A stretch of DNA of 59,899 nt from Herpetosiphonaceae bacterium (lineage in GTDB: Bacteria > Chloroflexota > Chloroflexia > Chloroflexales > Kallotenuaceae), in contig DASWTQ010000297.1 in the NCBI GenBank assembly GCA_036402055.1, positions 1 to 59,899 of the forward strand, in the 5' to 3' direction. The position numbers and the translations under genes were made by a program. The notes under the pieces are model-generated. The model had not been told where the DNA came from and did no database searches. It saw only the letters and a list, made by a program, of their open reading frames with translations. Of the stretch, positions 3,280-58,199 are shown one piece after another (positions within the stretch are counted from its first letter, which is position 1; every line of letters starts with the position of its first letter).

Positions 3280-3283
3280 CGTC

Positions 3284-7202: not shown

Positions 7203-7293
7203 TACTGGTCAAGTATTGACGGGCTGCGCGCAGTGTCACGACCCTCCAGACACGCGGGTCATGGCAGGCTGGCCCCCAAAGAAAGAGGCTTCC

Positions 7294-12951
<5,658 letters not shown>

Positions 12952-12964
12952 GAAGGAGCGACCC

Positions 12965-31437: not shown

Positions 31438-31441
31438 AGTG

Positions 31442-32746: not shown

Positions 32747-35700
32747 ACGTTGTCCCCCGCCTGCGCATCGGCGAGATACCGGGAGAGCAGCGCTGCGACG
32801 TGTTCCCCGAGCGGCTGCCTGAGCATCGTAAAATGGCTGCCCGGCGCCTGGTGAATAGTGAGTCGGCCCCTGATCCAGTGTCGCCAGCCTCGATCCTCGG
32901 GCACGCGCGGATCGCTGGTTTCCGAGGCGCGAATCAGCAGAACATCCTCCGTGTAGGATTGTGGATGATAGCGCAGCATGGCGTGATAGTTGGTTTTGAA
33001 GATCGTAAACAGATCGCGAATATCGCCGGGATTCAGCGTGGACGGCAGCTTTCCAAGCTGTATCGCCTGCTGTATGCTCGCGTCGAGCTGATCGGCGGGA
33101 TTGTCTGCTGCCGGCGAGTCGCTATCAGGCAGGTCAAGGCCCAGATCCTGAATAAACATCCGCAGCAAATCGGTTTCGTCAACCGACTCAGGAGCAGCCT
33201 GCTCCTCCGGCAGCGGCGCGTAGGTGTCGATCATGGCAACCAGCGTAGCTCGCTCACCGGTGCGACGGAGCTGTTGCGCCATCTCAAGCGCGATCAGCCC
33301 ACCCAGCGACCATCCGCCGAGCAGATACGGCCCGTGCGGAGCGATCTCGCGAATAGCCGCCAGATAAGCGCTTGCCATCTGCTCGATCGTTGTGTGCACG
33401 GTGGTTCCGCCCAGCCCCGAGGATTGCAAACCGTAGATCGGTTGATCGTGCGGCATAAGCTCGACCAGCCGGCTATAGGCCAGCACCTGACCGCCGCCCG
33501 GATGGATCAGGAACAGCGGCGGCCGTGATCCTCGCGTGCGCAGCCCGACTAGCGGTGTAGCCGCAGGTGCTGTCGTGCCGCGCAGCGCCGCCGCCAGCTG
33601 CTCGACGGTCGGGTTTTGCAGCAGGAGCGCCAGTGGAATCTCTTTTTCGAGCGCTGCGCGTAGCTCGTTGACGAGTCGGGCCGCTAGCAGCGAGTGACCG
33701 CCCAGCGCGAAGAAATTGTGAGTCACGCCGATCGGCGCGTGGCCCAGCACGCCCTCCCAGACTGCGACCAGCTGCCGTTCCAGCGCGTCGCGAGGAGCGA
33801 TCAGCGCGCTGGGATCGTCGATCGTCGTGTTGGGTGCGGGCAGCGCCTTGCGGTCGATCTTGCCGCTCGGCGTTTTTGGCAGGGTGGCCAGCTCCACAAA
33901 CAGCGATGGGATCATGTAGTCGGGGAGCTGCGCGCCGACTCGCTGGCGCAAGTCGGCAGAACCTAGAACCGGGTGCCCTCCGGGCGACCTAGAACCAGCT
34001 TCGCTTCCATCCCCTTGGTTCTTAGTTCTCGGTTCTCGGTTCTTAACCACGTACGCTACCAGGTGCTTCTCGCCCTTAGCGTCCTCGCGCACCACCACGA
34101 CGCACTCGTTGATGTCGGGATGCTGGGCCAGCGCGTGTTCGATCTCGCCGGTCTCGATGCGGAAGCCGCGCACTTTGACCTGGTGATCGATCCGCCCGAG
34201 GATTTCCACCGTGCCGTCGTCGCGCCAGCGGCCGAGGTCGCCCGTGCGCACCATGATCTGGCCGTCCTCGAAGGGACAGACCACAAAGCGCTCGGCCGTC
34301 AGCTCCGGGCGGAACAGGTAGCCGCGCGATACGCTCTCACCGGACACACACACCTCGCCCGCGATGCCGATGGGCTGCGGCTGCATGTGATCATCCACGA
34401 TGTAGATGCGATTGTTTTGCAGCGGCCGGCCCACCGTGATCGGCTTGCCCACATCCTCGGCGCGAATCGGCCCCAGAATGTTGATGTCGCTGATCTCGGT
34501 CAGGCCGTAGATATTGATGATCTCGACCGTCGATCCAAACTGGCCAAACACCGACTGAAGCAGGCGCTGCTCGATTTTCTCGCCGCCGATCAGCAGGTAG
34601 CGCAGCGCGTTGGCCGGCTGCTCCGGCGCGACCTCGTTCAGCACCGCCTGCATGTAGGACGGGACGGCATCGAGCAGATGGATCTGTTGATCGTTGAGAT
34701 AGCGCAGCAGCACGCGGCTGTTGAACTTGATCTCGTCCGAGATAATGTGCAGCGTGCGTCCGAAGATCAAGGTTGGGAAGATCTGGTTGACCGAGATGTC
34801 GAAGCTGATCGACGTGATCAGACCCGTGATCTGCACCTGCGGATCGTCAAAGTAGGCGCGCAGGCCATGCACGAGGTTGATCAATCCCTGCTGCTTGACC
34901 ATCACGCCCTTGGGCCGGCCCGTCGAGCCCGACGTGTAGATGATGTAGGCCAGGTGCTCCGGCAGCGCCGTGCGGGCTGGATTCGTCGCCGGATACGCCG
35001 CGAGTCGCTCCCAATCGGCGTCGAGACGGAAGATCTGCGCGGAGTGGTTGGGTAGGTTCCCGACCAGGCGATCTTGAGTCAGGAGCACCGGCGCCTGGCT
35101 GTGGCCAAGCATGTACTGGAGCCGGTCGGCGGGATAGTTGGGATCGAGCGGGACATAGGCGCCGCCCGCCTTGAGGATCGCCAGCATGCCGACGATCATC
35201 TCAAGCCCACGCTCGACCATCAGCGCGACCAGCACATCCGGCCCGACGCCCTGCGCCCGCAGATAATGCGCCAGCTGGTTGGCGCGCGCGTTCAGCTCGG
35301 CATAGCTCAGACTCGCGCCCTCATAGACGATCGCGGCGGTCTCGGGATTGCGCTCCACCTGCGCTTCGATCAGCTGATGCACGGCGGCATCGCGCGGATA
35401 CTCAGCCTCGGAGCGGTTCCAGTCGTGCAATATCTGCTGCTGCTCGGCGGCGCTCAACAGCGGCAGGTCAGTGATCCGCTGCTCCGGGTTGGCGACGATC
35501 GCTTCGAGGAGGCGCTGGAGCTGCTGGCCCATACGGACGATCGTCGCCGCCTCAAACAGATCGGTGCTGTACTCGATCATGCAGGTGAGACCCTGCGGCG
35601 TCTCGTTGATAAACAGCGTGAGATCGAACTTGGAGCTGGTATGCTCCGTGGCGAACTGCTCGACGGATAGTCCGCTAAACGGCGACGCCTGCGTCTCCTG

Positions 35701-38700
35701 GTGCGTCAAGACAAACAACACCTGGAAGAGCGGCGTGCGGCTCAGGTCGCGTGTGGGCTGAAGCTCCTCAACCAGCCGCTCAAACGGCAGCTCCTGATGT
35801 GCGTAGGCGTCGAGCGTCGTCGAGCGCACGCGGCCCAGGAGATCGACAAACGAGAGATCAGCCGCCAGGTCGGTACGCAGCACGAGCGTGTTGAGGAAAA
35901 AGCCCTGCATATGCTCGGTGCCTGGCTGCGCTCGGTTGGCGATCGGCGTGCCGACTGCAATGTCGCGCTGGCCTGTGTAGCGCTTGAGCAACACCTTGAA
36001 CGCGGCCAGATAGGTCATGAACAGCGTCACGCCGAGGCTGCGGCTCAGTTGTTGAACCGCAGCCGCCTGATCTGCGGGCAGCTCAAAGCTATGCAGCGCG
36101 CCACGATAGGTGCTTATGGGCGGGCGGGGATGATCGGCCGGCAGATCGAGATTGGCAAGGCCGTGAAGCTGGTTGGTCCAGTAGGCCAGCTGCTCCGTGA
36201 AGATCCGTCCTTGCATCCAGTCGCGCTGCCAGACCGCAAAGTCGGCATATTGCAGCTCCGGCTCAAGCAGCGGTGACGGCTCGTCGAGGCTGAACGCCTG
36301 GTAGAGCAGGCCCATCTCGTGCTTCAACAGCTCCAGCGACCACATATCCACGATGCTGTGATGCAGCACCAGGATCAAGACGTGTTCATCTTCGGCCAGC
36401 TTAAGCAGCGTCGTCGTGAGCAGCGGCCCGGATGCCAGATCGAAGCATTGCGCGCTCGTCTCCGCGATGATCCGGCGCGCGCGATGCGGCCGTTCTGCGG
36501 CGGCAACATCGGTCAGATCGATCAATCGCAGCGGCAGATCCAGCGCCGGGAGGATCTCCTGGAGCGGCTCTCCATTCTGCATGACATAACGTGTGCGCAG
36601 GATCGTGTGGCGGCGGATCAGCTCGTTGAAGCAGCGCTGCAAGATCACCGCCGAAAGCGGCCCCTGGAGATGCAGCGGCGAGACAACATTGTAGCTGCTG
36701 CTTTCTTCAAGCTGGTGCAAGAACCACAGCCGCTGCTGGCCGAACGAGAGCGGCAGCGGCTCGTCATGCCCGACGGGCCGGATCGGCGGGGCGTCCGCAA
36801 AGCCGGTGTGTCGCGTCTCCGCAATCATAGTGGCAAGACCGGCGATGGTCGGCATATCGAAGAAGCGCCGCAGCGGCACGACAACATCAAAGTGCTCGTG
36901 CACCTGCGTGATCATGCGCATCGCCAGCAGCGAGTGGCCACCCAGCGCGAAGAAATCGTCGGTAATGCCCAGCGCCGGCACTGCCAGCAGCGCGCGCCAG
37001 AGTGCGATCAGACGCTCCTCCAGCTCGTCACGCGGCGCCAGCAGTTCGCGCGCAGGAGCGGACAGACTTTGCGGCTGCAAGCGCCTGGCCTGAAGCAGCG
37101 CCTGCTCCTCGGCGCTCAGGATCGGCAGGCTGAGCACGCCCGCCGCTGGATTCTGCGTAGCCCGAGCCAGCAGCAGCAGAAAGTGGCGGCTGAGCGCGGC
37201 GATCGACTCGGCGTCGAACAGATCGCTGCTGTAGCCGATCAAGCCCTCGGCTCCGTCCGCGCTCTCGGTGATCGCCAGCGTCAGATCGAACTTGGCGCTC
37301 AGATAATCGACCGGCAGCAGGCGCATGGTGAAGGACGGCGTCGCATCGCCCGGCAGCGGCAGCGCCTGGTTGAGAACAAACATGACCTGAAACAACGGCG
37401 TGCGGCTGGGATCGCGTGGCGGATTCAGCGCTTCGACCAGCCGCTCGAACGGCAGATCTTGATGGGCCTGCGCTTCCAGCATCATGCTCTTGACACGCTC
37501 AAGCAACGCCAGCAAGCTGGGATCGTCGGCAAGATCAGTGCGCAGGACCAGCGTGTTGAGGAAGAAGCCGATCAGCGGCTCGGTCTCAGGGTGCGGCCGA
37601 TGCGCGATCGGCGAGCCGACGACGATGTCGGTCTGCGCGGTATAGTGTGCCAGCAGCGCCTGGAAAGCCGCGAGATAGACCATAAAATGCGTGGTGCGTG
37701 TCTGCTGGCTCAGCGCGCGAATCTGGGTAACGATCTGCTGGTCCACCGCGAAACGATGCGCTGCTCCGCGATGGCTCATCACCGACGGACGCGGGCGATC
37801 GGTGGGGAGCGCGAGGGCGCTGGGAAGATTGGCAAGCCGTGCCTGCCAGTAGCTTAGCTGCTGCTCGACGACCTCGTCCCGCAGCTGCTGGCGCTGCCAG
37901 ACGGCATAGTCGGCGTACTGAATCGGCAGCGGCGGCAAGGGCGATTCCCGGCCCTGTCGCAGCGCCTCGTATACGGCGCCCATCTCTTTCATCAACATAT
38001 CGACCGACCAGGCATCCGCGATGATGTGGTGGATGTTGACGATCAGGCGATAGGTCTGCTCGTCGCCGCAGAGCATGGTCACATAGACCAGCGGCCCGGC
38101 CTGTAGATCGAACGTGCGCAGCAGCTCGGCGCGCATCTGCTGCTCGGCGGCGGCCACAAAGGCATCATGCGGACGCTGCTCAAGGTGGATGATCGTCAGC
38201 GGAATGTGCAGCGCTGGCGCAATGATCTGCACCGGCTGCTGGCCGTGCAGGCTAAACGTGGTGCGCAGGATCTCGTGGCGGCGCACGATCTCGTTGAAGC
38301 TGCGCTCCATCAGCGCAAGATCGAGCTGTCCGCGCAGCTCGGCGGCCATGACGACGTTGTAGCCATTGCCCGCGCCGATCTGATCCAGCAGCCACAGGCG
38401 CTGCTGAGCGAAGGAAAGCGGCGGCGCCTCAGCGCCTGCGCGGCGTGGAATAACCTGTGCGGCCTCGCGGCTACCGCGCTGGGCTGCGCCGCGCAGCAGA
38501 CCCTGAAGCAGCGCCTGCTTCTTGGCCGAGAGCTGCTCTTTGCGGGCGGCAACTCGCGCCGAGCGGTTCAGATCGGTCTCCGGCTGCGCAGCTGTCGCCG
38601 CCTCGGCCACTCCCGCTGGTCGCTCCAGCTCCTGGATGATCGCCGCAACCGGCTGATCGGGCGTGGCTGTTACGCGCTCAAGCAGCCAGGTGAAATGCTC

Positions 38701-41700
38701 GACCAGGCGGATCATCGAGGCACGCTCAAAAAGCGCCGTGTTGTACTCGATCAGCCCGGTCAGCCCAGATTGCTGCTCGGTCAGGCTGAACGTTAGATCG
38801 AAGCGGGCGACATCGGCATAGGTGGGCACCAGCTCGATCTCAAGATCCGGCAGCTGAACGCTCTGGCTCAGGCCATTTTGCAAGACGAACATCACCTGCA
38901 CCAGCGGGGGACGTTTGGGATCGCGGCTGGCTCCCAGGCGCTCCACCAGCTTATCAAACGGCACTTCCTGATGATCGTAGGCGGCCAGTGTGGTGCAGCG
39001 AACCTGCTGTACCAGCTGGTGGAAGCTGGGCTGGCCGGTAAAATCGGTGCGGATCACCAGCGTGTTGACGAAGAAGCCGATCAGCCGCTCAAGCGCAGGA
39101 TGTGTCCGGTTCGCGATCGGAATGCCGACTTGCAGTTGATCCGGGTGGTTGGCATACCTGTGCAGCAGGAGCTTAAACGCCGCCAGCAATACCATGAACG
39201 GCGTTGCGTTAGTGGCCTGGCTCAACGACCGGACCCGTTCCACCAGATCCGCCGGAAGCGTAAACTCATAGATCGAGCCGGCAAAGGTCATCTGCGCCGG
39301 CCGTGGATGATCGGTGGGCAGATCCAGCGGTGGCAGCAGTGGTGCTCCCTGTGGCTGAAGCTGAGATTGCCAGTAGGCAAACTGCGGCTCCAGATCGCCG
39401 GCTTCGAGACGCCGGCGCTGCCACTGGCCAAAGTCGGCATACTGGATCTCCAGCTCCGGTAGCCGGGAAGCCAGTTCTGCGGCTGCGGGCTGCGCGTGCT
39501 CCCGGCGAAAAGCGCGATACAAGCTGGTCAGCTCCTGCGACCAAACGCCGACCGACCAGCCATCGGCGCAGATATGATGCACATTCAGCAGCAGCATGTG
39601 CTCATGGGTGCTGAGACGCAGCAGGGTTGCGCGCAGCAGCGGGCCGGTGGCAAGATCAAAGGGCTGATTGGCATCTCGGCGCATTCGGCTGTGCATTTCG
39701 GCCATGCGGGCGGCCGGCTCAAGCGCGCTCAAATCTTCGATCGGCAGACGGCCTGGCTGCGCGGGGTGGATGACGGCCACCGGCTGGCCTTCGATGTCGG
39801 CAAAAGTGGTGCGCAAAACCTCGTGCCGCCTGACGATCTCGCTCAGGCTGTGCTCCAGCGCCGGAATATCGAGATCGCCGCGCAGACGCAGGGCAAACGG
39901 CACGTTATACAGCGCGCTGCCCGGCATCAGCTGATCGAAGAACCAGAGGCGCTGCTGCGCAAACGACAACGGCTCGTGCTTCCGGCGCGGCTGTGGGCTG
40001 AGCGCCGGTCCTCGCTCGATCCGGGGCGCGGCGTCGATCACGGCTGCCAGGTCCGCGATCGTCGGATGTTCAAAGAGCGCCGCGATCGATAGCCCGAGGC
40101 CGTAGCGCTGATTAGCATGCGTGACGATCTGTGTGGCCAGCAGCGAGTGACCGCCGAGCGTGAAGAAATCGTCGTCGACGCTGACCACGGAGACACCCAG
40201 CACCTGCGCCCAGAGCCCTGCCAGATACGACTCGACTGATGTTCGCGGCGCAATAAGTTCGCTGTGACGCGCGGGCAGGTAGTCGGCAGGCGCGGGCAGC
40301 GCTTTACGATCGATTTTGCCGGCGGGAGTCTGCGGCAGCGTTTCAAGCGGGATGTACAGCGCGGGAACCATGTAGTCGGGCAAGGTCTCGCGCAGGGCGG
40401 CACGAATCTGCTGCTCGTCCAGCGTCTGCGCCGGAGCCGGCACCACATAGGCTACCAGTCGCTGATCTGCGGGACGTGGCTCGAACACCGCGACGATCGC
40501 CTGTGAGATGGCGGGTAGCGCCTCAAGCGCGGCCTCGATCTCGCCCAGCTCGATGCGCTGGCCACGAATCTTCACCTGGTGATCCGCTCGTCCGATGAAC
40601 TCAAACGATCCGTCGGCGCGGCGGCGAGCCAGATCGCCGGTTTTGTAGAGCCGTGTGCCGGGAGTAGAGCTGAACGGATCGGCCATAAACTTCTCGGCGG
40701 TGAGATCCGGCCGGTTCAGATAGCCGCGCGCAACGCCCATCCCGCCGATGTACATTTCGCCGATCTCGCCGGCTGGAACTTCCCGCAGCGCCCGATCGAG
40801 CAGATAGATCGCCTGATTGGTGCCCGGATAGCCGATCGGCAGCGGGTCGGGCAGCGGCTGCGCACCAGTCTGCGGCCAGCCCGTCGCGGCGATCGTGGCC
40901 TCCGTGGGACCGTACAGGTTGTACAGCGGGATCGACAGGCGGCGGAAGAACTGCGCCGCAAGCTCAGTCGTGACGGCCTCCGCGCCGGAGTATACCCGCC
41001 GTACGCTGGCAGCGCGCTCGGATAGATCGGGAGCGTCCAGCAGCAGACGCAGCGCCGACGGCACCAGAAAGAGCGTTGTCACCTGCTGCCGGGCGATCAG
41101 ATCAAGCAGGTAGGTCTGATCTTGATGCTTGTCGGGCGGCACGACCACCAGCGCCGCGCCCGCGACCAGCGGCGGGAACAGCTCCAGCACCGAGGCGTCG
41201 AAGCTGATCGGCGCTTTCAGCAGCGCTTTGTCGGCGCTATCCAGCGGGCTGATCTGCGCCAGCCAGGCCAGAAAGTTGCTCAGCGCCCCGTGGCTGATCA
41301 TCACACCTTTGGGGCGGCCGGTTGAGCCCGAGGTATAGATCACGTAGGCCAGGTTGTCGGAAGCGACATCCACGCCGGCTGTGCTGCCGGACGTCACGGG
41401 ATCGGCGGCCAGAGCAGGCGCATCCAGACACAGCACCTTTCCGGCATAGCCCGCCAGCGCGGCGCTGTAGCGCTGCTGAGTCAGCAGCAGTCCGGCCTGC
41501 GAGTCGTGCAGCATAAACTCGACGCGCTCGGCGGGATAGCTCGGCTCGATCGGCAGGTAGGCGCCGCCGGCCTTTAAAATCGCCAGGATCGCCACGATCA
41601 GCTCAGGCGAGCGATCCAGGTAGATGCCCACGATGACCTCAGGCCCGACTCCCGCGCGGCGCAGATGAGTCGCCAGTCGATTCGCCTGATCGTTCAGCTC

Positions 41701-43494
41701 GGCATAGCTTAGCTCGCGGCCTTCACAGCAAACCGCTGTGGCATTGGGTGTGCGCGCCGCCTGGGCCTCGATCAGCCGGTGAACGCCGCCGCTGCCTGTC
41801 GCCTGGGCCGCAGCCGGTCGCGGTGTCGAGTGCGGTGCTCGTGTCGCAAGCAGCCGGCGATCGATCTTGCCGGTCGCGGTCAGCGGCAGCGCATCGCGCA
41901 CGTCGATCAGCGAAGGAATCATGTATTCGGGTAGCTGCTCGTGCAAGAAGGCGCGGAGCGCGGATGGAAGATCCGAGCCGTTATTTGTTGCCTGCCCGGC
42001 GCGCGGGACGACATAGCCTACCAGCTGCTGCGCCCCGAGATCTCCCGGCGGCTCGTGCAGCACAACCACGGCTTCGCGGACGGCAGGATGCCGCGCCAGC
42101 ACGGCTTCGATCTCGCCCAGCTCGATGCGCAGGCCGCGCAGCTTGACCTGGTGATCGATGCGGCCAAGAAACGCCAGCCGGCCATCCGGCAGGTAGCGCA
42201 CGCGATCACCGGTGCGATACAGCCGCGCGCCGGGATCGTCGCCGAACGGATCGGGAAGGAAGCGCTCGGCGGTGAGATCCGGCCGGTTGAGGTAGCCCTG
42301 AGCCACGCCTTCGCCGCCGATGTACAGCTCGCCCGGCGCGCCGATCGAAACAAGATCGCCCTGCTGATCCAGGACATACAGCCGTGTGTTGGCGATCGGT
42401 CGCCCGATCGTGATCTCGTCGCCGGCGACGAGTCGCGCCGCGCTGGCGTTGGCGGTCGTCTCCGTGGGGCCGTACAAATTCCAGAGCTGAAGCTCCGGCA
42501 ATGCCCGCAGCGTACGCGCGACCAGCTCCTCGGTGACGTGCTCGCCGCCGAGCATCAGCTGCACCAGACTACCGGCCGGCAGCACGATCCCGCGCGCATC
42601 GATCTCATCCAGCAGCGCGCTCCACAACGTCGGCACGCAGTTAAGCGCAACCTGCTGCCGTCGTGCGATCGCCGCGAGCAGCGCCGGCGGATGGCTGACG
42701 ATCTCGTTCGGGAGAATCCACACCGCCCGCCCACGCAGCAGCGGAACAAAGATCTGTTTGAGCGAAGCGTCGAAGGAAAGCCTGGTTACAAACGGCAGCC
42801 ACTGCACGCTGTCCGCGATCAATGTGTGCTCGGCCCAGCACAGATAGCTGATCAGGCTGCGATGCGTGATCAGCGTGCCTTTCGGCTGGCCGGTCGAGCC
42901 CGACGTGTAGAGCACATAGGCCGGGCTATCTGCGGTAGCGCGACATGCAGGCGCGGCAGCAGCGGACTGCTGGCTGATCTCGGTCCAGGCGCGATCCAGG
43001 TTCAGGATCGAGCACTTGCCGGCGCTGAGCAGGTGCTGCGTGGTTGTATCGGCGATCAGCAGGCGCGCGCGCGAGTCCTGAAGAATGAAGCTCAGGCGGT
43101 CGGCGGGATCGGCGGGATCGAGCGGCAGGTAGGCTGCGCCCGCTTTCAGCACGGCCAGCAGACTGATCAGTAGATCGCGCGAGCGCGGCAGGCACAGCGC
43201 AACCAGCGTACCCGGGCCGACGCCCCGCGCTTGAAGCAGATGGCCGAGTCGATTGGCGCGCTGGTCCAGGGCGGCGAAGCTGAGCACGGTCTCGTCGTGG
43301 ATGATCGCCGCCGCTGCGGGAGTGCGCGCCGCCTGCTCCGCGATCAGATCGTGGATGCGGGCATCATGCGGAAAATCGAGCGTGGTTGCGTTCCATGCGT
43401 AGAGCAGCTTCTGCCGTTCGGCAGCGCCGGGCTCCGTGCCGGTCTGCTCCGAAAAAGGCAGCGTTGCCGCCGGTTGTTCGTCGAGCGGATTCAT
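32743..43494 (-). CDS. NRPS, A - A - T - C - C - T - C - A - T - TE
   Basis: 3583 aa, numbered from 43494.
- A1 is about aa 28-550 (nt 41845-43413; YVLYTSGSTGQPKG, NLYGPTETT, YRTGDRVR, TATGKIDRR).
- A2 is about aa 570-1070 (nt 40285-41787; [41 protein letters not shown]).
- T1 is about aa 1083-1155 (nt 40030-40248; FFTLGGHSL).
- C1 is about aa 1172-1615 (nt 38650-39981; HHICADGWS).
- A linker spans aa 1616-1688.
- C2 is about aa 1689-2120 (nt 37135-38430; HHIIADAWS).
- T2 is about aa 2153-2225 (nt 36820-37038; FFALGGHSL).
- C3 is about aa 2243-2670 (nt 35485-36768; HHSIVDMWS).
- A3 is about aa 2690-3220 (nt 33835-35427).
- T3 is about aa 3232-3305.
- TE is about aa 3320-3575 (GWSLGG).
Hand-extracted codes are A1 DAKNMGLANK, A2 DALFYGLIAK and A3 DINDLGIDIK, none of which I could assign. 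Confidence 0.9.
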   Translation of the reverse strand: MNPLDEQPAATLPFSEQTGTEPGAAERQKLLYAWNATTLDFPHDARIHDLIAEQAARTPAAAAIIHDETVLSFAALDQRANRLGHLLQARGVGPGTLVALCLPRSRDLLISLLAVLKAGAAYLPLDPADPADRLSFILQDSRARLLIADTTTQHLLSAGKCSILNLDRAWTEISQQSAAAAPACRATADSPAYVLYTSGSTGQPKGTLITHRSLISYLCWAEHTLIADSVQWLPFVTRLSFDASLKQIFVPLLRGRAVWILPNEIVSHPPALLAAIARRQQVALNCVPTLWSALLDEIDARGIVLPAGSLVQLMLGGEHVTEELVARTLRALPELQLWNLYGPTETTANASAARLVAGDEITIGRPIANTRLYVLDQQGDLVSIGAPGELYIGGEGVAQGYLNRPDLTAERFLPDPFGDDPGARLYRTGDRVRYLPDGRLAFLGRIDHQVKLRGLRIELGEIEAVLARHPAVREAVVVLHEPPGDLGAQQLVGYVVPRAGQATNNGSDLPSALRAFLHEQLPEYMIPSLIDVRDALPLTATGKIDRRLLATRAPHSTPRPAAAQATGSGGVHRLIEAQAARTPNATAVCCEGRELSYAELNDQANRLATHLRRAGVGPEVIVGIYLDRSPELIVAILAILKAGGAYLPIEPSYPAERVEFMLHDSQAGLLLTQQRYSAALAGYAGKVLCLDAPALAADPVTSGSTAGVDVASDNLAYVIYTSGSTGRPKGVMISHGALSNFLAWLAQISPLDSADKALLKAPISFDASVLELFPPLVAGAALVVVPPDKHQDQTYLLDLIARQQVTTLFLVPSALRLLLDAPDLSERAASVRRVYSGAEAVTTELAAQFFRRLSIPLYNLYGPTEATIAATGWPQTGAQPLPDPLPIGYPGTNQAIYLLDRALREVPAGEIGEMYIGGMGVARGYLNRPDLTAEKFMADPFSSTPGTRLYKTGDLARRRADGSFEFIGRADHQVKIRGQRIELGEIEAALEALPAISQAIVAVFEPRPADQRLVAYVVPAPAQTLDEQQIRAALRETLPDYMVPALYIPLETLPQTPAGKIDRKALPAPADYLPARHSELIAPRTSVESYLAGLWAQVLGVSVVSVDDDFFTLGGHSLLATQIVTHANQRYGLGLSIAALFEHPTIADLAAVIDAAPRIERGPALSPQPRRKHEPLSFAQQRLWFFDQLMPGSALYNVPFALRLRGDLDIPALEHSLSEIVRRHEVLRTTFADIEGQPVAVIHPAQPGRLPIEDLSALEPAARMAEMHSRMRRDANQPFDLATGPLLRATLLRLSTHEHMLLLNVHHICADGWSVGVWSQELTSLYRAFRREHAQPAAAELASRLPELEIQYADFGQWQRRRLEAGDLEPQFAYWQSQLQPQGAPLLPPLDLPTDHPRPAQMTFAGSIYEFTLPADLVERVRSLSQATNATPFMVLLAAFKLLLHRYANHPDQLQVGIPIANRTHPALERLIGFFVNTLVIRTDFTGQPSFHQLVQQVRCTTLAAYDHQEVPFDKLVERLGASRDPKRPPLVQVMFVLQNGLSQSVQLPDLEIELVPTYADVARFDLTFSLTEQQSGLTGLIEYNTALFERASMIRLVEHFTWLLERVTATPDQPVAAIIQELERPAGVAEAATAAQPETDLNRSARVAARKEQLSAKKQALLQGLLRGAAQRGSREAAQVIPRRAGAEAPPLSFAQQRLWLLDQIGAGNGYNVVMAAELRGQLDLALMERSFNEIVRRHEILRTTFSLHGQQPVQIIAPALHIPLTIIHLEQRPHDAFVAAAEQQMRAELLRTFDLQAGPLVYVTMLCGDEQTYRLIVNIHHIIADAWSVDMLMKEMGAVYEALRQGRESPLPPLPIQYADYAVWQRQQLRDEVVEQQLSYWQARLANLPSALALPTDRPRPSVMSHRGAAHRFAVDQQIVTQIRALSQQTRTTHFMVYLAAFQALLAHYTAQTDIVVGSPIAHRPHPETEPLIGFFLNTLVLRTDLADDPSLLALLERVKSMMLEAQAHQDLPFERLVEALNPPRDPSRTPLFQVMFVLNQALPLPGDATPSFTMRLLPVDYLSAKFDLTLAITESADGAEGLIGYSSDLFDAESIAALSRHFLLLLARATQNPAAGVLSLPILSAEEQALLQARRLQPQSLSAPARELLAPRDELEERLIALWRALLAVPALGITDDFFALGGHSLLAMRMITQVHEHFDVVVPLRRFFDMPTIAGLATMIAETRHTGFADAPPIRPVGHDEPLPLSFGQQRLWFLHQLEESSSYNVVSPLHLQGPLSAVILQRCFNELIRRHTILRTRYVMQNGEPLQEILPALDLPLRLIDLTDVAAAERPHRARRIIAETSAQCFDLASGPLLTTTLLKLAEDEHVLILVLHHSIVDMWSLELLKHEMGLLYQAFSLDEPSPLLEPELQYADFAVWQRDWMQGRIFTEQLAYWTNQLHGLANLDLPADHPRPPISTYRGALHSFELPADQAAAVQQLSRSLGVTLFMTYLAAFKVLLKRYTGQRDIAVGTPIANRAQPGTEHMQGFFLNTLVLRTDLAADLSFVDLLGRVRSTTLDAYAHQELPFERLVEELQPTRDLSRTPLFQVLFVLTHQETQASPFSGLSVEQFATEHTSSKFDLTLFINETPQGLTCMIEYSTDLFEAATIVRMGQQLQRLLEAIVANPEQRITDLPLLSAAEQQQILHDWNRSEAEYPRDAAVHQLIEAQVERNPETAAIVYEGASLSYAELNARANQLAHYLRAQGVGPDVLVALMVERGLEMIVGMLAILKAGGAYVPLDPNYPADRLQYMLGHSQAPVLLTQDRLVGNLPNHSAQIFRLDADWERLAAYPATNPARTALPEHLAYIIYTSGSTGRPKGVMVKQQGLINLVHGLRAYFDDPQVQITGLITSISFDISVNQIFPTLIFGRTLHIISDEIKFNSRVLLRYLNDQQIHLLDAVPSYMQAVLNEVAPEQPANALRYLLIGGEKIEQRLLQSVFGQFGSTVEIINIYGLTEISDINILGPIRAEDVGKPITVGRPLQNNRIYIVDDHMQPQPIGIAGEVCVSGESVSRGYLFRPELTAERFVVCPFEDGQIMVRTGDLGRWRDDGTVEILGRIDHQVKVRGFRIETGEIEHALAQHPDINECVVVVREDAKGEKHLVAYVVKNREPRTKNQGDGSEAGSRSPGGHPVLGSADLRQRVGAQLPDYMIPSLFVELATLPKTPSGKIDRKALPAPNTTIDDPSALIAPRDALERQLVAVWEGVLGHAPIGVTHNFFALGGHSLLAARLVNELRAALEKEIPLALLLQNPTVEQLAAALRGTTAPAATPLVGLRTRGSRPPLFLIHPGGGQVLAYSRLVELMPHDQPIYGLQSSGLGGTTVHTTIEQMASAYLAAIREIAPHGPYLLGGWSLGGLIALEMAQQLRRTGERATLVAMIDTYAPLPEEQAAPESVDETDLLRMFIQDLGLDLPDSDSPAADNPADQLDASIQQAIQLGKLPSTLNPGDIRDLFTIFKTNYHAMLRYHPQSYTEDVLLIRASETSDPRVPEDRGWRHWIRGRLTIHQAPGSHFTMLRQPLGEHVAALLSRYLADAQAGDNV
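33955..34047 (-). repeat. In-frame repeat-like insertion in the A8-A9 loop of A3, with inverted heptamer arrays
   Basis: Extra codons KNREPRTKNQGDGSEAGSRSPGGHPVLGSADL lie between LVAYVV and LPDYMIP. On the plus strand the DNA reads AGAACC TAGAACC ... CTAGAACC ... TGGTTCT TAGTTCT CGGTTCT CGGTTCT. AGAACC units on one side therefore face their reverse complement GGTTCT on the other. Confidence 0.6.
38431..38649 (-). other. 73-aa C1-C2 interdomain linker carrying a docking-head-like motif
   Basis: Linker aa 1616-1688 contains ARKEQLSAKKQALLQGLLRGAAQ (nt 38479-38547). This matches the N-termini of the two C-starting proteins in the window, LSPKRRALLAALLKEQG (12986-13045) and TTEQKRALVAELLQRKIAA (46812-46880). 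It is absent from the ordinary T-to-C linkers. Confidence 0.55.
41770..41862 (-). other. Direct A1-A2 junction with no carrier domain
   Basis: The A10 motif of A1 (LPLTATGKIDRRLLATRAPHSTPRPAAAQATGSGG) runs straight into the A1-core start of A2 (VHRLIEAQAARTPNATAVCCEGRELSYAELN). The linker is about 20 aa, and no GGxS carrier motif occurs between them. Confidence 0.8.
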
Positions 43495-43544: not shown

Positions 43545-46500
43545 TCAGTCGATCTCGATCGCATCCTCATCCATGGCCTCGATCTTTTCGAGCAGCGCCT
43601 CCTCGGCCACCAGCGCCAGGTCGGCAACGGTCGGCGCTTCAAAAAAGGCCCGGATCGGAATATCGACCTCAAAGGCGCTGCGGATGCGCGAGGCAAATTG
43701 AATCGCCAGGAGCGAGTGCAGGCCAAACTCAAAAAAGTTATCGTGCACGCCGATCCGGGTAATGCCGGAGATCTGCTGGAAGATGTCGGCGATAACTTCT
43801 TCGGCCAGGCTGCTGGGCGCAGTGTATGCGCGCTCCGAGGCGGCGCGATCCATATCGGGAGCCGGCAGCGCGCGGCGATCGATCTTGCCGCTGGCGGTGC
43901 GAGGCAGCGTTTCCAGCAGCACGATATGGCCGGGCACCATATAGTCAGGCAGGCGCTTTTTCAAGAAGAGCCGCAGATCCTGGACGGCTAGCTCGGCGCC
44001 CGAGATCGGCTCCGCATAGGCGACTAGCTGCGTGCCGCCGGGCATGTCGCGCGTAACCACCACCGCCGTCGAACATGACGGGTGCTGCTGCGCGACGGCC
44101 TCGATCTCGCCCAGCTCGACGCGGAAGCCGCGCAGCTTGACCTGTCGATCTGTGCGTCCGAGAAATTCTATCGTGCCGTCGGCAAGATAGCGCGCCCGAT
44201 CGCCGGTTTTGTAGAGCCGCGCGCCGGGTGTAGCGCTGAACGGATGCGGAAGAAAGCGCTCGGCGGTCAGATGCGGCTGTGCCAGGTAGCCGCGTGCTAG
44301 CCCCGCGCCGCCAAGATACAGCTCGCCCGGCACGCCGATCGGGACAGGCTGACCACGCCGGTCGAGAATATAGATCTGGGTGTTGCCAAAGGGCTGCCCG
44401 ATCGGCACCAGCTGATCGGCGGCGCGCGACTCGGCCAGGGCGTCGTACCAGGTGCTGTCGATCGTGGCTTCGGTGACGCCGAACGAGTTGACGACGCGCG
44501 TGCTGGGGCTGCACAGCCGGCGGATCTGATCGAACTCCTCCATGTACCAGCTATCCGAGCCGCACACCAGCAGCCGCAGCGTGTCTAGCCGCAGGTCGTT
44601 TTCGGCCAGGTACTGCATCAGCGGTCGCAGCACGGCCGGCACAAACTCGGCGGCGTCGATCTGTTCGCGGCGGATCAGGTCGTACAGGTGATCCGGCGCC
44701 AGCAGCAGATCGCGAGGACACAGCACGAGCGTTCCGCCGGAGCAGAGAGCGCGTACCAGGTCGCCCACGAACACGTCAAAGGTAACATTGGCCATCTGCA
44801 AATGGCGGCGCGCGGTGCTGAGGTCGTAGGTTTCTTCCCAGGCGCGGTAGCTGTTGACCAGATTGCGATGCGGGATCATCACGCCTTTGGGCCGACCGGT
44901 CGAGCCCGAAGTGTAGATGATATAGGCCAGATTGTCGGCCGTGCTCCGGCACTGCGGCGCGCTCTCCGGTCTCTGCGCGATGGCCGGCGCGTCGCCGTCC
45001 AGGCACACGATCTGCGCGTCATGCTCCGGCATCGCATCGACCAGCCGCTGCTGCGTGATCACGATGGCCGCGCCGGTGTCGGACAGGATCGCGTGCTGGC
45101 GCTCGGACGGAAGATCGGGATCGAGCGGCGTGTAGGCAGCGCCGGCCTTGAGCACGGCCAGGATCGCTACCACCAGCTCCAGCGAGCGCTCAAGGCAGAT
45201 GCCGACCCGCATCTCTGGCTCGATGCCCAGCGCTTGCAGGTGGTGCGCCAGCTGGTTGGCCCGCCGATCAAGCTCGGCATAGCTCAGGCGCTCGCTCCGC
45301 CAGACAACGGCGGTCGCGGCAGGTGTGCGGGCGGCCTGCTCCGCGATCAAGTCGTGGATGCAGCGATCGACGGTGTAGGGCCGCGCGGTTGTATTCCAGT
45401 CAACCAGCAGCTGCCGGCGCTCGACCGAATCCAGCAGCGGGATCTCGTCGATCCGCTGGTCCGGGTTCGCCGCCATGCTCTGCAACACCGTCTCGAAATG
45501 CCGGGCGAACTGCTCGATCGTCGTCGCGTCATACAGATCGACATTGTACTCAAGGTGGCCGCTGATCTCTTCGCGGAAGCCCTCGACCCAGATCGTGAGG
45601 TCGTAGTTGGCGCGGCCGTTGTCGTCGAGTGTCGAGCGGGTCAGCGTCAGGTTGGGCAGCTGCGAGACCGGCGGCACCGGCGTATTTTGCAGCACCATCA
45701 TGATCTGGAAGAGCGGCGTGTGGCTCAGGTGACGCTCGACCTTCAGCTCTTCCAGCAGCTTCTCGAAGGGCAGGTCTTGATGCGCATAGGCGCCCAGTGT
45801 TACATCGCGGACCCGGTGCAGCAGCTCGCGCACAGTTGGCCGTCCCGCCAGCGAGGTGCGCAGCACCAGGTTGTTGACGAAGAAGCCCAGCAGCGGCTCC
45901 AGCACGCTCTGGCTGCGATTGGCGATATAGGTGCCGACAGGAACGTCGTCGTGCTCCGTGTAGCGATACAGGACCAGCTTCAAGGCCGTGAGCAGCGTCA
46001 TGAACAGGGTGATGCCCTCGCTCTTGCTGAGCTGTTTCAGCGCTGTAGAAAGCTGCGGCGAGAAGGCGAAGGGCAGGATCGCGCCACAGTACGTCTGCAT
46101 CGACGGTCGTGGCCGGTCGGTCGGCAGCGACAAAAACGCCGGCGTATCGGCGAGCTGTTGCCGCCAGTAGCTCAGCAGGCGCTCCAGCGCGCCGCCGGGT
46201 GCGTCGGGCGCGAGCCACTGGTGCTGCCAGTAGGCATAATCGGCGTACTGCACCGCGAGCGGCGGGAGTGGATCGGGCTGTCCCATCAGCGCGGCGGCGT
46301 ACACCATGCCGATCTCGCGCACGACGATCGGGCCTGACCAGCCATCGGAGATGATATGGTGCATCGTCAGGAGAATGTAGTGATCTTTCTCGTCCAGGCG
46401 CAGCAGCGAGGCGCGGATCAGCGGCCCGACTGCCAGATCGAAGGGCGTGGCGGCCTCCTCGCGGGCCAGGCGCTGCACCTCGGCCTCGCGCTCCTCCGGC

Positions 46501-46892
46501 GGCAGATGGGTCAGCGAGATCAGCGGCAGCGGCACATGCAGCACGGGCGGGATCACCTGCCGGGGCCGTCCGTCGACGCTGACAAAGGTCGTGCGCAGGA
46601 TCTCGTGGCGCTGCACAACATCGTTCAGGCTGCGCTGCAACATCGCAATATTGAGCGTGCCGCTGAGACGGTAGAGCGAGAAGAGATTGTACGCGGCTAC
46701 TCCCGGCTCCAGCTGATCCAGAAACCACTGGCGCAGCTGTGGGAAGGAGAGCGGCATATCTTCCGTGCGCGGCACCGGCACGATCGGCGGCATGGCCGAG
46801 GCCGGCAGCGCTTGCTGTTTGGCCGCGATCTTACGCTGGAGCAGCTCCGCCACCAGGGCGCGTTTTTGTTCAGTCGTCAGGTTATCCGACAT
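43545..46892 (-). CDS. NRPS, C - A(Orn-like) - T
   Basis: 1115 aa. C is about aa 44-480 (nt 45453-46763, HHIISDGWS). A is about aa 500-1010 (nt 43863-45395), with [36 protein letters not shown] and SGKIDRR. T is about aa 1025-1095 (nt 43608-43820, FFEFGLHSL). The hand-extracted code DVGEVGSIDK matches the published Orn code DVGEIGSIDK at 9 of 10 positions. Confidence 0.9.
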   Translation of the reverse strand: MSDNLTTEQKRALVAELLQRKIAAKQQALPASAMPPIVPVPRTEDMPLSFPQLRQWFLDQLEPGVAAYNLFSLYRLSGTLNIAMLQRSLNDVVQRHEILRTTFVSVDGRPRQVIPPVLHVPLPLISLTHLPPEEREAEVQRLAREEAATPFDLAVGPLIRASLLRLDEKDHYILLTMHHIISDGWSGPIVVREIGMVYAAALMGQPDPLPPLAVQYADYAYWQHQWLAPDAPGGALERLLSYWRQQLADTPAFLSLPTDRPRPSMQTYCGAILPFAFSPQLSTALKQLSKSEGITLFMTLLTALKLVLYRYTEHDDVPVGTYIANRSQSVLEPLLGFFVNNLVLRTSLAGRPTVRELLHRVRDVTLGAYAHQDLPFEKLLEELKVERHLSHTPLFQIMMVLQNTPVPPVSQLPNLTLTRSTLDDNGRANYDLTIWVEGFREEISGHLEYNVDLYDATTIEQFARHFETVLQSMAANPDQRIDEIPLLDSVERRQLLVDWNTTARPYTVDRCIHDLIAEQAARTPAATAVVWRSERLSYAELDRRANQLAHHLQALGIEPEMRVGICLERSLELVVAILAVLKAGAAYTPLDPDLPSERQHAILSDTGAAIVITQQRLVDAMPEHDAQIVCLDGDAPAIAQRPESAPQCRSTADNLAYIIYTSGSTGRPKGVMIPHRNLVNSYRAWEETYDLSTARRHLQMANVTFDVFVGDLVRALCSGGTLVLCPRDLLLAPDHLYDLIRREQIDAAEFVPAVLRPLMQYLAENDLRLDTLRLLVCGSDSWYMEEFDQIRRLCSPSTRVVNSFGVTEATIDSTWYDALAESRAADQLVPIGQPFGNTQIYILDRRGQPVPIGVPGELYLGGAGLARGYLAQPHLTAERFLPHPFSATPGARLYKTGDRARYLADGTIEFLGRTDRQVKLRGFRVELGEIEAVAQQHPSCSTAVVVTRDMPGGTQLVAYAEPISGAELAVQDLRLFLKKRLPDYMVPGHIVLLETLPRTASGKIDRRALPAPDMDRAASERAYTAPSSLAEEVIADIFQQISGITRIGVHDNFFEFGLHSLLAIQFASRIRSAFEVDIPIRAFFEAPTVADLALVAEEALLEKIEAMDEDAIEID

Positions 46893-46972: not shown

Positions 46973-49900
46973 TTATTCATTCGTCAGCCTGGCGAGCAGC
47001 GCATCAAGATCGGCCTCGGAGAGCTGATCGATATTGGCCAGCAGCGCCTCCTCCTCGACCGCGCCGTCACCGCTGCTCCCATCCGGTGCTGGTGCATCGC
47101 CCAGCAGCTGCGCCAGCTCCGCGATCGTCTGGTGCTGGAAAAACTGGTTGGGGCTTAGCTCAAAGCCGGCTTCTTTGGCGCGCACCATGATCTGCGTTCC
47201 GAGCAGCGAGTCGCCGCCCAGCTCGAAAAAGTTGTCGTGAATGCCGACCTGCTCGATGCACAGCACATCCTGCCAGAGCGTGGCGATGCGCTGCTCAAGC
47301 TCGGTTCCTGGCGCGACATACGGCGTCGGCAGATCCGGGCGCGGGTAGGTTTCCACGCGCAGTGTCGCGGACTGGCCGGCCATCTCGGTCAGCAGCCGGT
47401 GCGGATCGAAGCGATTAACCTCGTCGATGACGCCCGCCAGATCGCGCGTGGAAACGATGATCTGCGGCAGATGGTTGAGGGCCAGAATCCGCCTCAGCAC
47501 GGCGATGCCTTCCTCGGGCAGGATCGCGTCTTTCAGCGTGCGCAGCCCTTCGGCCAGGCCGCCGGGCGCCAGGCTGTCGGTCTCGGCCGGCGTGGAATCG
47601 AGCGCATCGCTCTGCGCCGACTCGTAGAGCCGCACCAGCGCATCCGGCGCGACCCGCTTCACGGTGAAGCCTTCGATGTTGACCGCGACGTTGCCCTCAG
47701 CATCCATGATCGCCACATCGATCACCACGGTCTCGTCGCCGGGCGTCGTGTCGTGGGGCAGGCGCACATAGCAGTAGAGGGTTTTGGGAAATGCGCCGTA
47801 GATCTGGACCCGCGCGTAGGAGAGCGGCAGATAGTTGCCCTCGCCGATCGATTGGATCGCGAAGCTGGTCGCGATGTCCATCAGCGCCGGGTGGATCGCG
47901 AAGCGCTCGTCGGCGGCGACAAACGACTCGTCAAGCTCCAGCACCGCCAGTCCCTCGCCAGTTCCGGCGTACACCGCCTTGATACAGTTCCAGCGCGGGC
48001 CGACGTCCACAAACTCGGCCATCTTCGCCCGCGACTCGGTCGTCACATGGAGGTCGACCGGCGCGCAGCGTATCAGAATGCCGGGAAGATCCAGCACCGG
48101 CTGCGCGGCGACCGGCAGCGCGGCGACTTTGCCGACCACATGATCTTTCCAGCGGGTGCGGCCAAGCACGGTCGCCTGGCTGGAGATCCGTACCGCCAGC
48201 TCGTCGGCGCCGCCTTCCAGCAGCACCCGCAGCGATTTGCGCTCGCTCTCGCCGACCATGAAGGGCGTCATGAACAGGAGATCGCGAATCTCCACCGCGC
48301 TCGATCCGCGATGACGCGTAAAGGCGCTGTACACAACCTCGGGATAGGTCGCGCCGGGAATCGTCGGCGTGCCCAGCACGCGATGCTCGCCCAGCACCCA
48401 GTGCGTGCGCGGATCGAACTCGGTCGTGAACTGCGCGCGCTCGGGCGACTCGCTGGTGTAGGTGTCCAGCAGCGGATGTTCGGCAGCCTTGCCCTGCGGC
48501 TGTCCCGGCAGCGCGCGCAGCCCTTCGGTCGCCACCGCCATGCCGACTTTCTGCCAGGCATCCCAGTTGATCGCGACGGTAAATACGCCCTGCTGTGAGT
48601 TGGCGTGCGCGAAGGCATCTAAAAAGCTGTTGGCCGCGCAGTAGTCGGCCTGGCCCATGCCGCCGGTGATCGCGGTGATCGACGAGAACAGCACCATGAA
48701 ATCCAGCGGCACCTGGCGCAGCGCGCTGTCGAGCAGGAGCGTACCCTGGATTTTGGGCGCCAGCACCGCCACCGCGTCTTCCGGCCGCTTGAGCTGGATG
48801 ATGCCCGCGCCGGGCAGGCCGGCGGCGTGAAAAACGCCGTGCAGCGTGCCGAACGTGCCGATCGTCTCACGGACCAGCGCCTCGACATGTATAGGATCGG
48901 TGATGTCGGCGGGGAAGAGCAGCACCTCGGCGCCTGCCGCCTCCAGCGCCTGCACCTGGCGGATTTTCTCGCGGGTCGCGGCGGCGGCATCGTCGGTGGT
49001 TGCCAGCCAGATCGACCAGGCCTCGCGATCGGGCAGCGGCGTGCGGCTGGTCAGCACGAGCTTCGGCTGGATGCTGCGCGCAAGCTCACGCGCCACCTCC
49101 AGGCCGATGCCGCCCAGGCCACCGGTGATCAGGTACACGCCGCCGGTTCGCAGCCGGTCCGCGATCGGCTGCGAGGGCTCAGGCAGCGGCGCGGCCTCAT
49201 ACGTTTGCGCCCAGCGATACATGCCGCGATAGGCGATCACCGGATCGACGGCGGCGCTGTGTAGCTCCAGCCAGAGCTGCTCGACGAGCTGCTGCGCCTG
49301 CGTTGAAGCCGGTGCCGGCAGCGCCACGTCGATGCTCTGGCAGCTGATATGCTTGTACTCCTGCGCGATAACCTTGCACAGCCCGAGCAGCGGCGCCTTG
49401 GTCGGGTGCAGCTCCGGCTCATTGGCGACCGCCTGCATGCCGCTGGAGACCACGTGCAGGCGCATCGGCTGCTGCTCTTTCAAGCGGCCCAGGCTTTGCG
49501 CCAGTGCCAGCAGACCATAAAAGCCGTAGGCCAGATCGTGCTCGGCTCGCTCCAGCGGCGACGCGCCCTCGGCCAACGCGGCCGTCCACAAATAGACGAT
49601 TCCATGCGGCAGGCTGCCTGTCTCGGCGAGCCGGCCCAGCAGATGATCATAGTCGCCACTTTGCTGCGGATTGATGACATACTGCTGCGTGTCGATCTGC
49701 GCAAACTCAGGCCCGACGCCCACCGTTACGATGCGATCGCCGGACGCCGCCAGCCGCTGCGTGCAGGCGCTGCTGAGCCAGGTGTTATCGACAAACACGA
49801 GCCAGGTACGCGGCTCGTCGGTGTGCGGGACCGGCGGCTGCGATCGCTTCCACGATGGAATATAAAGCCAGTCGGCCAGATCGGCCTTGCGGCTCAGGGC

Positions 49901-52636: not shown

Positions 52637-52657
52637 ATTTAGCTTATCCTTCGTGTA

Positions 52658-58198: not shown

Positions 58199-58199
58199 G

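Follow-up and report, generated by a model that had tools for sequence, protein, structure and literature searches.

A candidate docking head between two intact condensation domains, and a possible Y-shaped assembly line, in a Herpetosiphonaceae nonribosomal peptide synthetase

The logic of nonribosomal peptide synthetases (NRPSs) is nearly all linear, and branch points are rare. In the hybrid polyketide synthase (PKS)-NRPS systems for polycyclic tetramate macrolactams (PTMs; heat-stable antifungal factor (HSAF)/ikarugamycin type), a single condensation (C) domain acylates both amines of a carrier-bound ornithine (Orn) with two chains from one iterative PKS. The one well-studied case of tandem C domains is icosalide, in which a fatty acid is joined to a peptide (PMC6553374); in module 3 of IcoA from Burkholderia gladioli, arranged as T-LCL-CI-A-T (T, carrier; A, adenylation domain; LCL, L-to-L elongation C domain; CI, starter C domain), the adjacent C domains were experimentally shown to serve one carrier, and the proximal C domain uses a trans donor (PMC6553374; PMC10510592). 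A tandem C1-C2 before A-T was also described for PfaA, the fungal highly reducing (HR)-PKS-NRPS of PF1163A (PMC11731387). C-T modules that lack an A domain and are charged by one that is non-adjacent or acts in trans occur in the mannopeptimycin, thalassospiramide, WS9326A and syringomycin (SyrB1/SyrE) systems (PMC8949500, PMC10510592), and tandem A domains before one T domain in PyrG (pyridomycin) and AurA (auriculamide), where one of the two is degenerate or dispensable (PMC10510592). Each of the three features (C domains in tandem, modules without an A domain, A domains in a stack) is thus already known. Here we analyse a 59,899-nucleotide (nt) stretch of DNA from a Herpetosiphonaceae bacterium (contig DASWTQ010000297.1 of assembly GCA_036402055.1; hereafter the window), in which one minus-strand gene at 32743-43494 encodes a protein, hereafter the big NRPS, that unites all three features and carries between its adjacent C domains a linker resembling a docking element.

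The gene for the big NRPS is one uninterrupted frame of 3,583 amino acids (aa) with the domain order A-A-T-C-C-T-C-A-T-TE (TE, thioesterase). Pfam recognises three Condensation, three AMP-binding and three PP-binding domains and one thioesterase, and the core motifs are all intact (Table 1; domain counts are from Pfam, boundaries from hidden Markov models (HMMs) built in this analysis and from motif positions). A preliminary description of the window, made from the sequence alone, had placed a candidate convergence point of two chains at 37135-39981, which corresponds to aa 1172-2120 and comprises C1, the linker and C2, with T2 just outside (36823-37026). The order given there, T1-C1-linker-C2-T2 with no A domain in that module and with the catalytic His and Asp in both C domains, was reproduced by motifs and HMMs, and Pfam and the HMM boundaries likewise returned three A and three T domains with two of the A domains stacked at the N-terminus. 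The linker between C1 and C2 is present as described, but its length is 68 aa by HMM boundaries and not 73 aa.

Both stacked A domains, A1 and A2, retain the A3, A5, A7 and A8 motifs as well as the A10 Lys, and A2, which lacks the usual ExxxLLxxWN lead-in, opens directly at 'VHRLIEAQ'. Only 33 aa, and no A domain, lie between C2 and T2. In this short linker the first part of a C-A linker (LSAEEQALLQA) is fused to the last part of an A-T linker (LLAPRDELEERLIALW), a pattern that suggests the footprint left by an A domain that was excised. With C2-T2 devoid of an A domain and two supernumerary A domains intact on the same protein, it is a robust inference that one of the latter would charge T2. 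It can be deduced with the same robustness that T2 is the acceptor for C2, and that C1 draws its donor from T1 and has no acceptor module in cis. The specificity codes of A1, A2 and A3 could not be assigned to an amino acid, and none looks diamino-acid-like.

For comparison we assembled 160 fetched loci and 120 database proteins; approximately 1,400 C domains from the fetched loci and database matches were annotated identically, in a first set of 733 and a second set of 660. Both C1 and C2 proved to be full-length, matching positions 2-437 and 2-434, respectively, of our own Condensation HMM and covering 4-454 and 3-428 in NCBIfam matches. In a nearest-neighbour test against 762 C-type domains of the fetched loci, labelled by context and with epimerization (E) domains included, all 30 nearest neighbours of C1, and likewise of C2, were C domains placed after a T domain or at a subunit N-terminus, and none was an E or after-E domain. 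The test behaved as expected on controls from P2, one of two NRPS proteins (P1 and P2) encoded on the plus strand: 28 of the 30 neighbours of its E domain were E domains, and its terminal C domain retrieved 11 of the 15 'after-E' domains. C1 and C2 share 43-54% identity with other LCL-like C domains, as opposed to 25-29% with the P2 E domain and 27-29% with the P2 DCL domain (DCL, D-donor to L-acceptor C domain), and among solved structures they match best Txo1/Txo2 of teixobactin and the PCP-C of tyrocidine TycC (PCP, peptidyl carrier protein). C2 shares its HHxxxDA variant with many others: of about 700 C domains, about 160 have it, 105 of them within normal C-A modules, and the Gly of HHxxxDG is known not to be invariant (PMC1894796). 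C2 bears the N-terminal motif PLSFAQQRLW, and its neighbours are LCL-type, which places it outside the starter (CI) clade. These data support C1 and C2 being ordinary L-to-L elongation domains, catalytically competent as judged from their sequences.

The preliminary description had also entertained the alternative that one of the two C domains is a non-catalytic scaffold or epimerase-like; the full-length profile matches, motifs, neighbours and structural relatives contradict it. An epimerase-like domain was rejected on account of the 0/30 E neighbours and the absence of the GHGR signature of E domains from both C1 and C2. A dead C domain or X-domain-like scaffold was rejected likewise, as both keep HHxxxD and the DA variant is common; the pseudo-C domains of two comparison loci (L067 and L065) show SALCSDRW and LMCLDRY at this site. 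C1 and C2 are merely 46% identical as proteins, and a recent duplication was thus dismissed as their origin. Among the 40 nearest C neighbours of C1, 6 belong to A-less C-T modules, compared with a background of 26/762, an enrichment that is based on small numbers.

The C1-C2 linker (…RSARVAARKEQLSAKKQALLQGLLRGAAQRGSREAAQVIPRRAGAEAPPLSFAQQRLW) contains an element equivalent to those that open P2 (MLNSSAQRGALSPKRRALLAALLKEQG…FPMSFAQQRLWF) and the neighbouring C-A-T subunit of the minus strand (…LTTEQKRALVAELLQRK…MPLSFPQLRQWF). We found no such element in the T1-C1 and T2-C3 linkers of the big NRPS. Across the 160 loci and 120 proteins, a strict form of the head motif (LSxxKxxLLxxxL, shortly upstream of a C domain) precedes 46 C domains that are initial to their open reading frames (ORFs) and is present in none of 428 T-C linkers; the sole other internal case is locus L081, described below. 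An HMM trained on 45 N-terminal heads scored 17.5 bits for the C1-C2 linker (aa 1647-1689), 21.5 for L081 and 33.6 for P2, while the best of 424 T-C linkers reached 13.0. Across 106 distinct junctions between a T-ending and a C-starting subunit, the head co-occurs with an acidic helical tail after the upstream carrier, L(D/E)xLS(D/E)(D/E)E(V/A)xxLL (odds ratio 15, p = 2e-9); other subunit junctions surveyed carry the beta-hairpin (TubC_N) class instead. No remnant of an A domain was seen in the C1-C2 linker when the sequence was read directly. Thus, the linker looks like the N-terminal docking head typical of C-starting subunits, now lodged inside a polypeptide. A single-sequence AlphaFold model of aa 1600-1760 contains a long helix at aa 1641-1680, but with a mean pLDDT of 52.6 it is too unreliable to use. 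An in-frame GTG preceded by GGAG…GGGA lies at 38608-38610 on the minus strand (aa 1629), 26 codons before the head helix; it may be the relic start of a once-separate trunk subunit, or an internal start.

A mis-join or collapse in repetitive NRPS DNA that deleted an A-T pair between C1 and C2 could produce the same layout, and the preliminary description had allowed for such an error. NRPS clusters are generally rich in repeats. Nevertheless, the longest internal DNA repeats are at most 300 nt with 60-79% identity, and together with the 46% identity of C1 and C2 this leaves an assembler nothing to collapse. The junction itself is unique sequence outside the conserved motifs and encodes, in frame, a recognisable docking head, and the C-head-C layout recurs in L081, a metagenomic contig of independent origin. 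We regard an assembly artefact as barely credible.

The candidate partner of the internal head is encoded immediately upstream. The gene for the C-A-T subunit ends 50 nt from that of the big NRPS, and its product terminates 20 aa past the T domain, with no C domain of its own downstream. Its A domain has the code DVGEVGSIDK, one residue off the classical Orn code, DVGEIGSIDK, and for this reason the Orn-like call stands as a prediction; Orn is also the sole diamino acid predicted for the minus-strand operon. The window holds three heads (P2, the C-A-T protein and the internal one before C2) and three acidic tails (P1 …LDQLSDDEVELMLQERV, PKS2 …IDQLSEADLDALLARLTNE and the C-A-T protein …EEALLEKIEAMDEDAIEID), and both carrier-to-ketosynthase (KS) junctions have basic tails. 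We propose from this layout that the P1 tail would pair with the P2 head and the PKS2 tail with the C-A-T head, which leaves the C-A-T tail and the internal head for each other. Additionally, the C-A-T tail EKIEAMDEDAIEID resembles the tail DEIVAMDEDQAERL of a Longimicrobium metagenome-assembled genome (MAG; locus L080), which precedes a head, ELSAAKRALLEARLFG, that in turn resembles QLSAKKQALLQGLLRG of the window. As the tail HMM discriminates poorly (tails of the negative set reach 38 bits), the argument for this tail rests on the L080 resemblance and on elimination, and the case for it as the putative partner of the internal head is no more than moderate. As for the preliminary description, its account of the architecture, the competence of the C domains, the Orn call and the C-A-T protein ending in a T domain all held up, and its suggestion that this carrier acts in trans where C1 meets C2 is independently supported by the head-like linker and by the C-A-T protein having the only unpaired acidic tail; the lipid-glycerate input that it assigned to T1 fared worse, as discussed below.

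From these observations we favour, tentatively and with somewhat less than even confidence, a model in which the big NRPS is the fusion of two subunits, with the Orn carrier docked at the internal head, C2 handing the chain on to T2, and C1 acylating the second amine of Orn. The side unit, A1-A2-T1-C1, would have ended in a C domain, and the trunk unit, head-C2-T2-C3-A3-T3-TE, would have begun with a head. First, the internal head would recruit the acidic tail of the adjacent Orn-loading C-A-T subunit, so that the docked carrier faces C1 on its acceptor side and C2 on its donor side, like a covalent T domain in C-A-T-C. C2 would then move the hybrid chain ending in Orn (from a Glu-type starter through two PKS subunits to Orn; Glu, glutamate) onto the residue on T2; the Orn carrier in trans is the proposed donor here. 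One of the stacked A domains would charge T2, and the other T1. C1 would put the cargo of T1 on the second amine of Orn, the only spare nucleophile, either while Orn is at the trans carrier, as in the preliminary description, or after the move to T2, as in icosalide; the product would be identical and branched at Orn. C3, A3, T3 and TE would complete and release it. The fusion of side unit and trunk makes functional sense only within this branch family of models. That the internal head between two active C domains brings an NRPS-PKS chain and a second carrier-bound unit together on both amines of Orn, i.e., that the line is Y-shaped, is possible, albeit on balance doubtful. Table 1 gives the positions of all parts.

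Table 1. Positions of the domains, linkers and neighbouring features discussed in the text (window coordinates).
Feature	Position (nt)	Residues (aa)	Strand	Remarks
A1, first stacked A domain	41842..43368	43-551	-	code DAKNMGLANK; all core motifs including A10 Lys
A2, second stacked A domain	40291..41784	571-1068	-	code DALFYGLIAK
T1, carrier	40033..40242	1085-1154	-	Ser1117
C1, full-length, LCL-type	38629..39975	1174-1622	-	HHICADGWS, catalytic His1307
C1-C2 linker, 68 aa	38425..38628	1623-1690	-	apparent internal copy of an N-terminal docking head
Head helix core LSAKKQALLQGLLRG	38488..38532	1655-1669	-	strict motif match
C2, full-length, LCL-type	37126..38424	1691-2123	-	HHIIADAWS, His1823
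C2-T2 linker, 33 aa	37027..37125	2124-2156	-	sequence read directly
T2, carrier of the A-less module	36823..37026	2157-2224	-	Ser2188
C3-A3-T3-TE, canonical final module and release domain	32806..36756	2247-3563	-	
C3		2247-2681	-	HHSIVDMWS
A3		2701-3220	-	code DINDLGIDIK
T3		3237-3304	-	
TE		about 3326-3563	-	
C-A-T subunit	43545..46892		-	N-terminal head (LTTEQKRALVAELLQRK); Orn-like code DVGEVGSIDK; T domain Ser1060
Acidic C-terminal tail of the C-A-T subunit, EEALLEKIEAMDEDAIEID	43548..43607		-	proposed partner of the internal head
PKS2 C-terminal tail, …EEEALLANIDQLSEADLDALLARLTNE	46976..47050		-	cognate-type partner of the head of the C-A-T subunit
Glu-type A-T protein	58200..59899		-	code DGKDLGVVDK; gene continues past the window end; listed from an internal ATG
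Terminal DCL-type C domain of P2	17837..19132		+	T1 feeder in the preliminary description; probably the end of a separate cassette

Several points weigh against the branched line. The score of the C1-C2 head lies below the minimum training score of bona fide N-terminal heads (34.7 bits), and its position, 33 aa past the end of C1 and not at a polypeptide N-terminus, is internal in a way that was found in just one other case. The tail of the C-A-T protein, itself short, scores 10 bits with the tail HMM and does not match the tail regular expression. Nothing indicates which A domain loads which T domain. We found no orthologue of the big NRPS in 185,579 genomes, the JGI metagenomes or a 5.8-billion-protein set, where the best matches were generic (~45-50% identity over a single module), and so the arrangement cannot be shown to be conserved. 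Two other tandems carry remnants of A domains (see below), so that such tandems can be scars of deletion or fusion. Finally, the window ends inside the gene for the Glu-type A-T protein, which leaves a linear route from C1 to that protein.

In such a linear route the line would re-enter the big NRPS. A-A-T1-C1 would be a loading module whose C1 acts in trans, passing its aminoacyl group across a module split between C and A to the Glu-type A-T protein, and the chain would proceed through PKS1, PKS2, the C-A-T(Orn) subunit and the internal head to C2-T2-C3-A3-T3-TE, with no branch and with the fusion merely incidental. Each C domain would then have one donor and one acceptor, and a second nucleophile would be unneeded. 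Terminal C domains are followed by A-starting subunits in 4 of the 45 cases surveyed (e.g., L033 and L065), and L065 holds a free-standing A-T-C subunit shaped like A2-T1-C1. The visible start of the Glu-type protein falls within its A domain, which makes an A-first protein possible; however, its N-terminus lies off the window and may equally bear a C domain or more modules. In natural C|A splits the C domain ends in a free C-terminus, whereas C1 is followed by the head and C2, and this route offers no reason for a loading unit to be encoded, and fused, between the C-A-T gene and the trunk. We consider it unlikely.

True C-C adjacency is rare in the loci compared. The first set gave nine apparent pairs, and as the filter for E-C pairs was imperfect in this survey, at least three of the nine are E-C; the remainder have short linkers or a remnant of an A domain, and only L081 has C-head-C. 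In the second set the sole C-C pair is that of the big NRPS. L081 (metagenome contig Ga0256867_10000339) reads …T-C-A-T-C-A-T-C(HHIIADAWS)-[89-aa linker with LSASQQELLKRRLK]-C(HHIISDGWS)-A-T-TE and is not an orthologue (39-47% identity); as an independent C-head-C it shows that the layout is not unique to the window. No trans partner was seen near it: the contig begins within the NRPS, and the genes downstream of the TE encode a phosphate transporter, a PhoU-like and an SIS-CBS protein. Three further tandems (L152, L143 and L041) combine a short linker with a distinct 'LTxxQLLFWF' type of C domain.

The same survey bears on a further explanation, that the C-C junction is left over from merged subunits or a lost module, T1-C1 most likely being idle and the N-terminal region being retained solely because the A-less T2 depends on one of its A domains for loading. 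Such scars have parallels. P0091 (T-C-[60-aa remnant of an A N-terminus]-C-A-T-TE) keeps a piece of an A domain between its C domains, and the L081 linker holds an A10-like remnant, LTPNGKSD, before its head. L164 (P0285, 25-10791; …C-A-A-T-C-A-T-C-[last 50 aa of an A domain]-T) combines stacked A domains with an A-less module, and its first A domain lacks the A10 region and may be decaying. No orthologue is at hand that would reveal purifying selection on the arrangement. In the big NRPS, by contrast, A1, A2, T1 and C1 keep all core motifs (A3, A5, A7, A8, A10 Lys, the carrier Ser and HHxxxDG) in an uninterrupted frame, and the linker between its C domains has no A-domain remnant. Were T1-C1 idle, decay of its ~1.6 kb of coding sequence would be expected. 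A scar of fusion or deletion appears quite unlikely to us.

As for the cargo of T1, P1 and P2 would, according to the preliminary description, deliver a lipid-glycerate-D-amino-acid chain to T1 through the terminal DCL domain of P2, and C1 would join that chain to Orn, so that two lines converge. P1 is a FAAL-ACP-C-FkbH-like-T protein (FAAL, fatty acyl-AMP ligase; ACP, acyl carrier protein), with homologues named FkbH-like or HAD-IIIC in their sources, and P2 is a C-A-T-E-C protein whose terminal DCL-type C domain has no acceptor of its own. The big NRPS begins with an A domain, and in one relative the same starter protein does feed a longer NRPS line. Nevertheless, P1 and P2 belong to a cassette (window 3889-19177, both strands) with a UDP-galactopyranose mutase and an EryCIII-like glycosyltransferase (GT), which recurs in L162, L161 and L163. 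In L162 (a Herpetosiphonaceae MAG) a P1 homologue is followed by GT-C-A-T-E-C, with the GT fused and 51% identity to P2 over its full length; the cassette ends with the same E-C, then an MFS (major facilitator superfamily) transporter and a hydrolase, and no NRPS gene follows in the 25.6 kb fetched of the 40-kb contig. In L161 and L163, GT and galactopyranose mutase adjoin the cassette as well. Within the window the plus- and minus-strand gene sets are convergent and ~13.5 kb apart, with a sugar ABC transporter in the gap, and 24 kb separate the end of P2 from the start codon of the big NRPS gene. As the cassette is conserved and stands alone in the L162 stretch, it is probably a separate cluster, and probably a self-contained pathway for a glycosylated acyl-glyceroyl-D-amino acid.

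The N-terminus of A1 argues in the same direction. Stand-alone starter A domains such as GrsA carry a lead-in of the ExxxLLxxWN type, which that of A1 resembles, whereas A domains of subunits acting after a C domain begin with 'VHxLF'. On the same grounds we dropped the N-terminal 'ERQKLLYAWN' of A1 as a sign of a split C|A module. Taken together, an input from P1 and P2 to T1 is decidedly unlikely, and T1 most likely carries a single amino acid. In the E domain of P2 (16415-17764, plus strand), NHLAIDGVS has Asn for the first His and keeps the catalytic second His; the L162 homologue has HHLAIDGVS.

Other loci show how a catalytic C domain can end a subunit. At a recurrent split junction in L094, L085, L067, L107, L065 and L056 (probably also L011), exemplified by the L067 ORFs from 5240 and 11624, a catalytic C domain closes the first subunit. 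It is of the HHxxxDAWS type in five loci, with a basic tail of 30-60 aa (e.g., …RLQKFKQVKRK), and in L056 it has HHAITDGWS and a short tail. The partner subunit begins with a C-like domain opening '(E)GFRLSPQQ', which in the two read, L067 and L065, precedes A-T and has lost the HH motif. Such a junction looks like a catalytic C domain handing over across a pseudo-C scaffold.

Elsewhere in the minus-strand operon, both PKS subunits (46973-58219) are ordered KS-AT-KR-DH-carrier (AT, acyltransferase; KR, ketoreductase; DH, dehydratase), with KR before DH as in synthases of the polyunsaturated fatty acid (PUFA) or enediyne type, and they may act iteratively; their carriers have the NRPS-like core motif GIHDNFFELGGDSL. 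On the other side of the big NRPS gene (28360-32746, minus strand), an MFS transporter gene overlaps it by 4 nt and is followed by a gene for a 1,035-aa protein with a DUF2306 membrane domain and an M28 peptidase; the two could form an export and maturation pair for the product. The G+C content rises from 53-57% over the first 6 kb to 58-67% in what follows, with most megasynthase genes at 62-67%, and the composition of the biosynthetic region may not match that of the host genome.

If the branched line is real, an internal head that seats a free carrier between two C domains would be a simple and portable way, in nature as in engineering, to merge lines or to insert a module in trans, and the wiring of 'orphan' C domains and A-less carriers would be explained. 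If the junction is a fusion scar instead, the big NRPS offers a snapshot of module loss and subunit merging. In the literature searched we found neither a docking head between two active LCL domains nor the arrangement A-A-T-C-head-C-T beside a tailed single-module subunit. The proposal shares with the PTM systems the acylation of both amines of Orn, but invokes two C domains and two donors. In PfaA, no head is reported between the C domains, no trans carrier is involved, and a single amide bond is required (PMC11731387). Like the mannopeptimycin, thalassospiramide, WS9326A and syringomycin systems, the big NRPS has an A-less module, C2-T2, and a spare A domain elsewhere, i.e., one A domain would serve a distant T domain; unlike them, it has the spare A domain stacked N-terminally (A-A-T) on the same polypeptide, ~1,100 residues upstream, and we saw no shuttling thioesterase or free-standing A-T protein in the window. 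In contrast to PyrG and AurA, both of its A domains are intact, and there is an orphan T2 in need of a supplier.

The internal head and its putative partner resemble, by layout, the alpha-helical PCP/C docking pairs (PAX-type three-helix bundle; class 2 helical docking domains; PMC9113145), with a helix before the C domain and an acidic helical extension after the carrier; the same layout recurs in the window at the junctions from P1 to P2 and from PKS2 to the C-A-T subunit. The known docking heads are terminal, however, and that of the big NRPS lies between two C domains. IcoA is alike in that two intact adjacent C domains join two chains on one polypeptide, and in that the distal LCL domain takes its donor from the upstream cis carrier and attacks a second nucleophile of the intermediate bound to the downstream carrier (PMC6553374), as C1 would in the proposed model. 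The proximal C domain of IcoA is of the starter type, uses a fatty-acyl thioester and belongs to a module with its own A domain, whereas both C domains of the big NRPS are LCL and the module is A-less. The proposed trans donor is an entire NRPS-PKS line arriving through the head, and the nucleophile would be an amine of Orn where IcoA uses a 3-hydroxyl. On the evidence of domain order and motifs, the resemblance to the icosalide LCL-CI tandem is one of wiring logic only.

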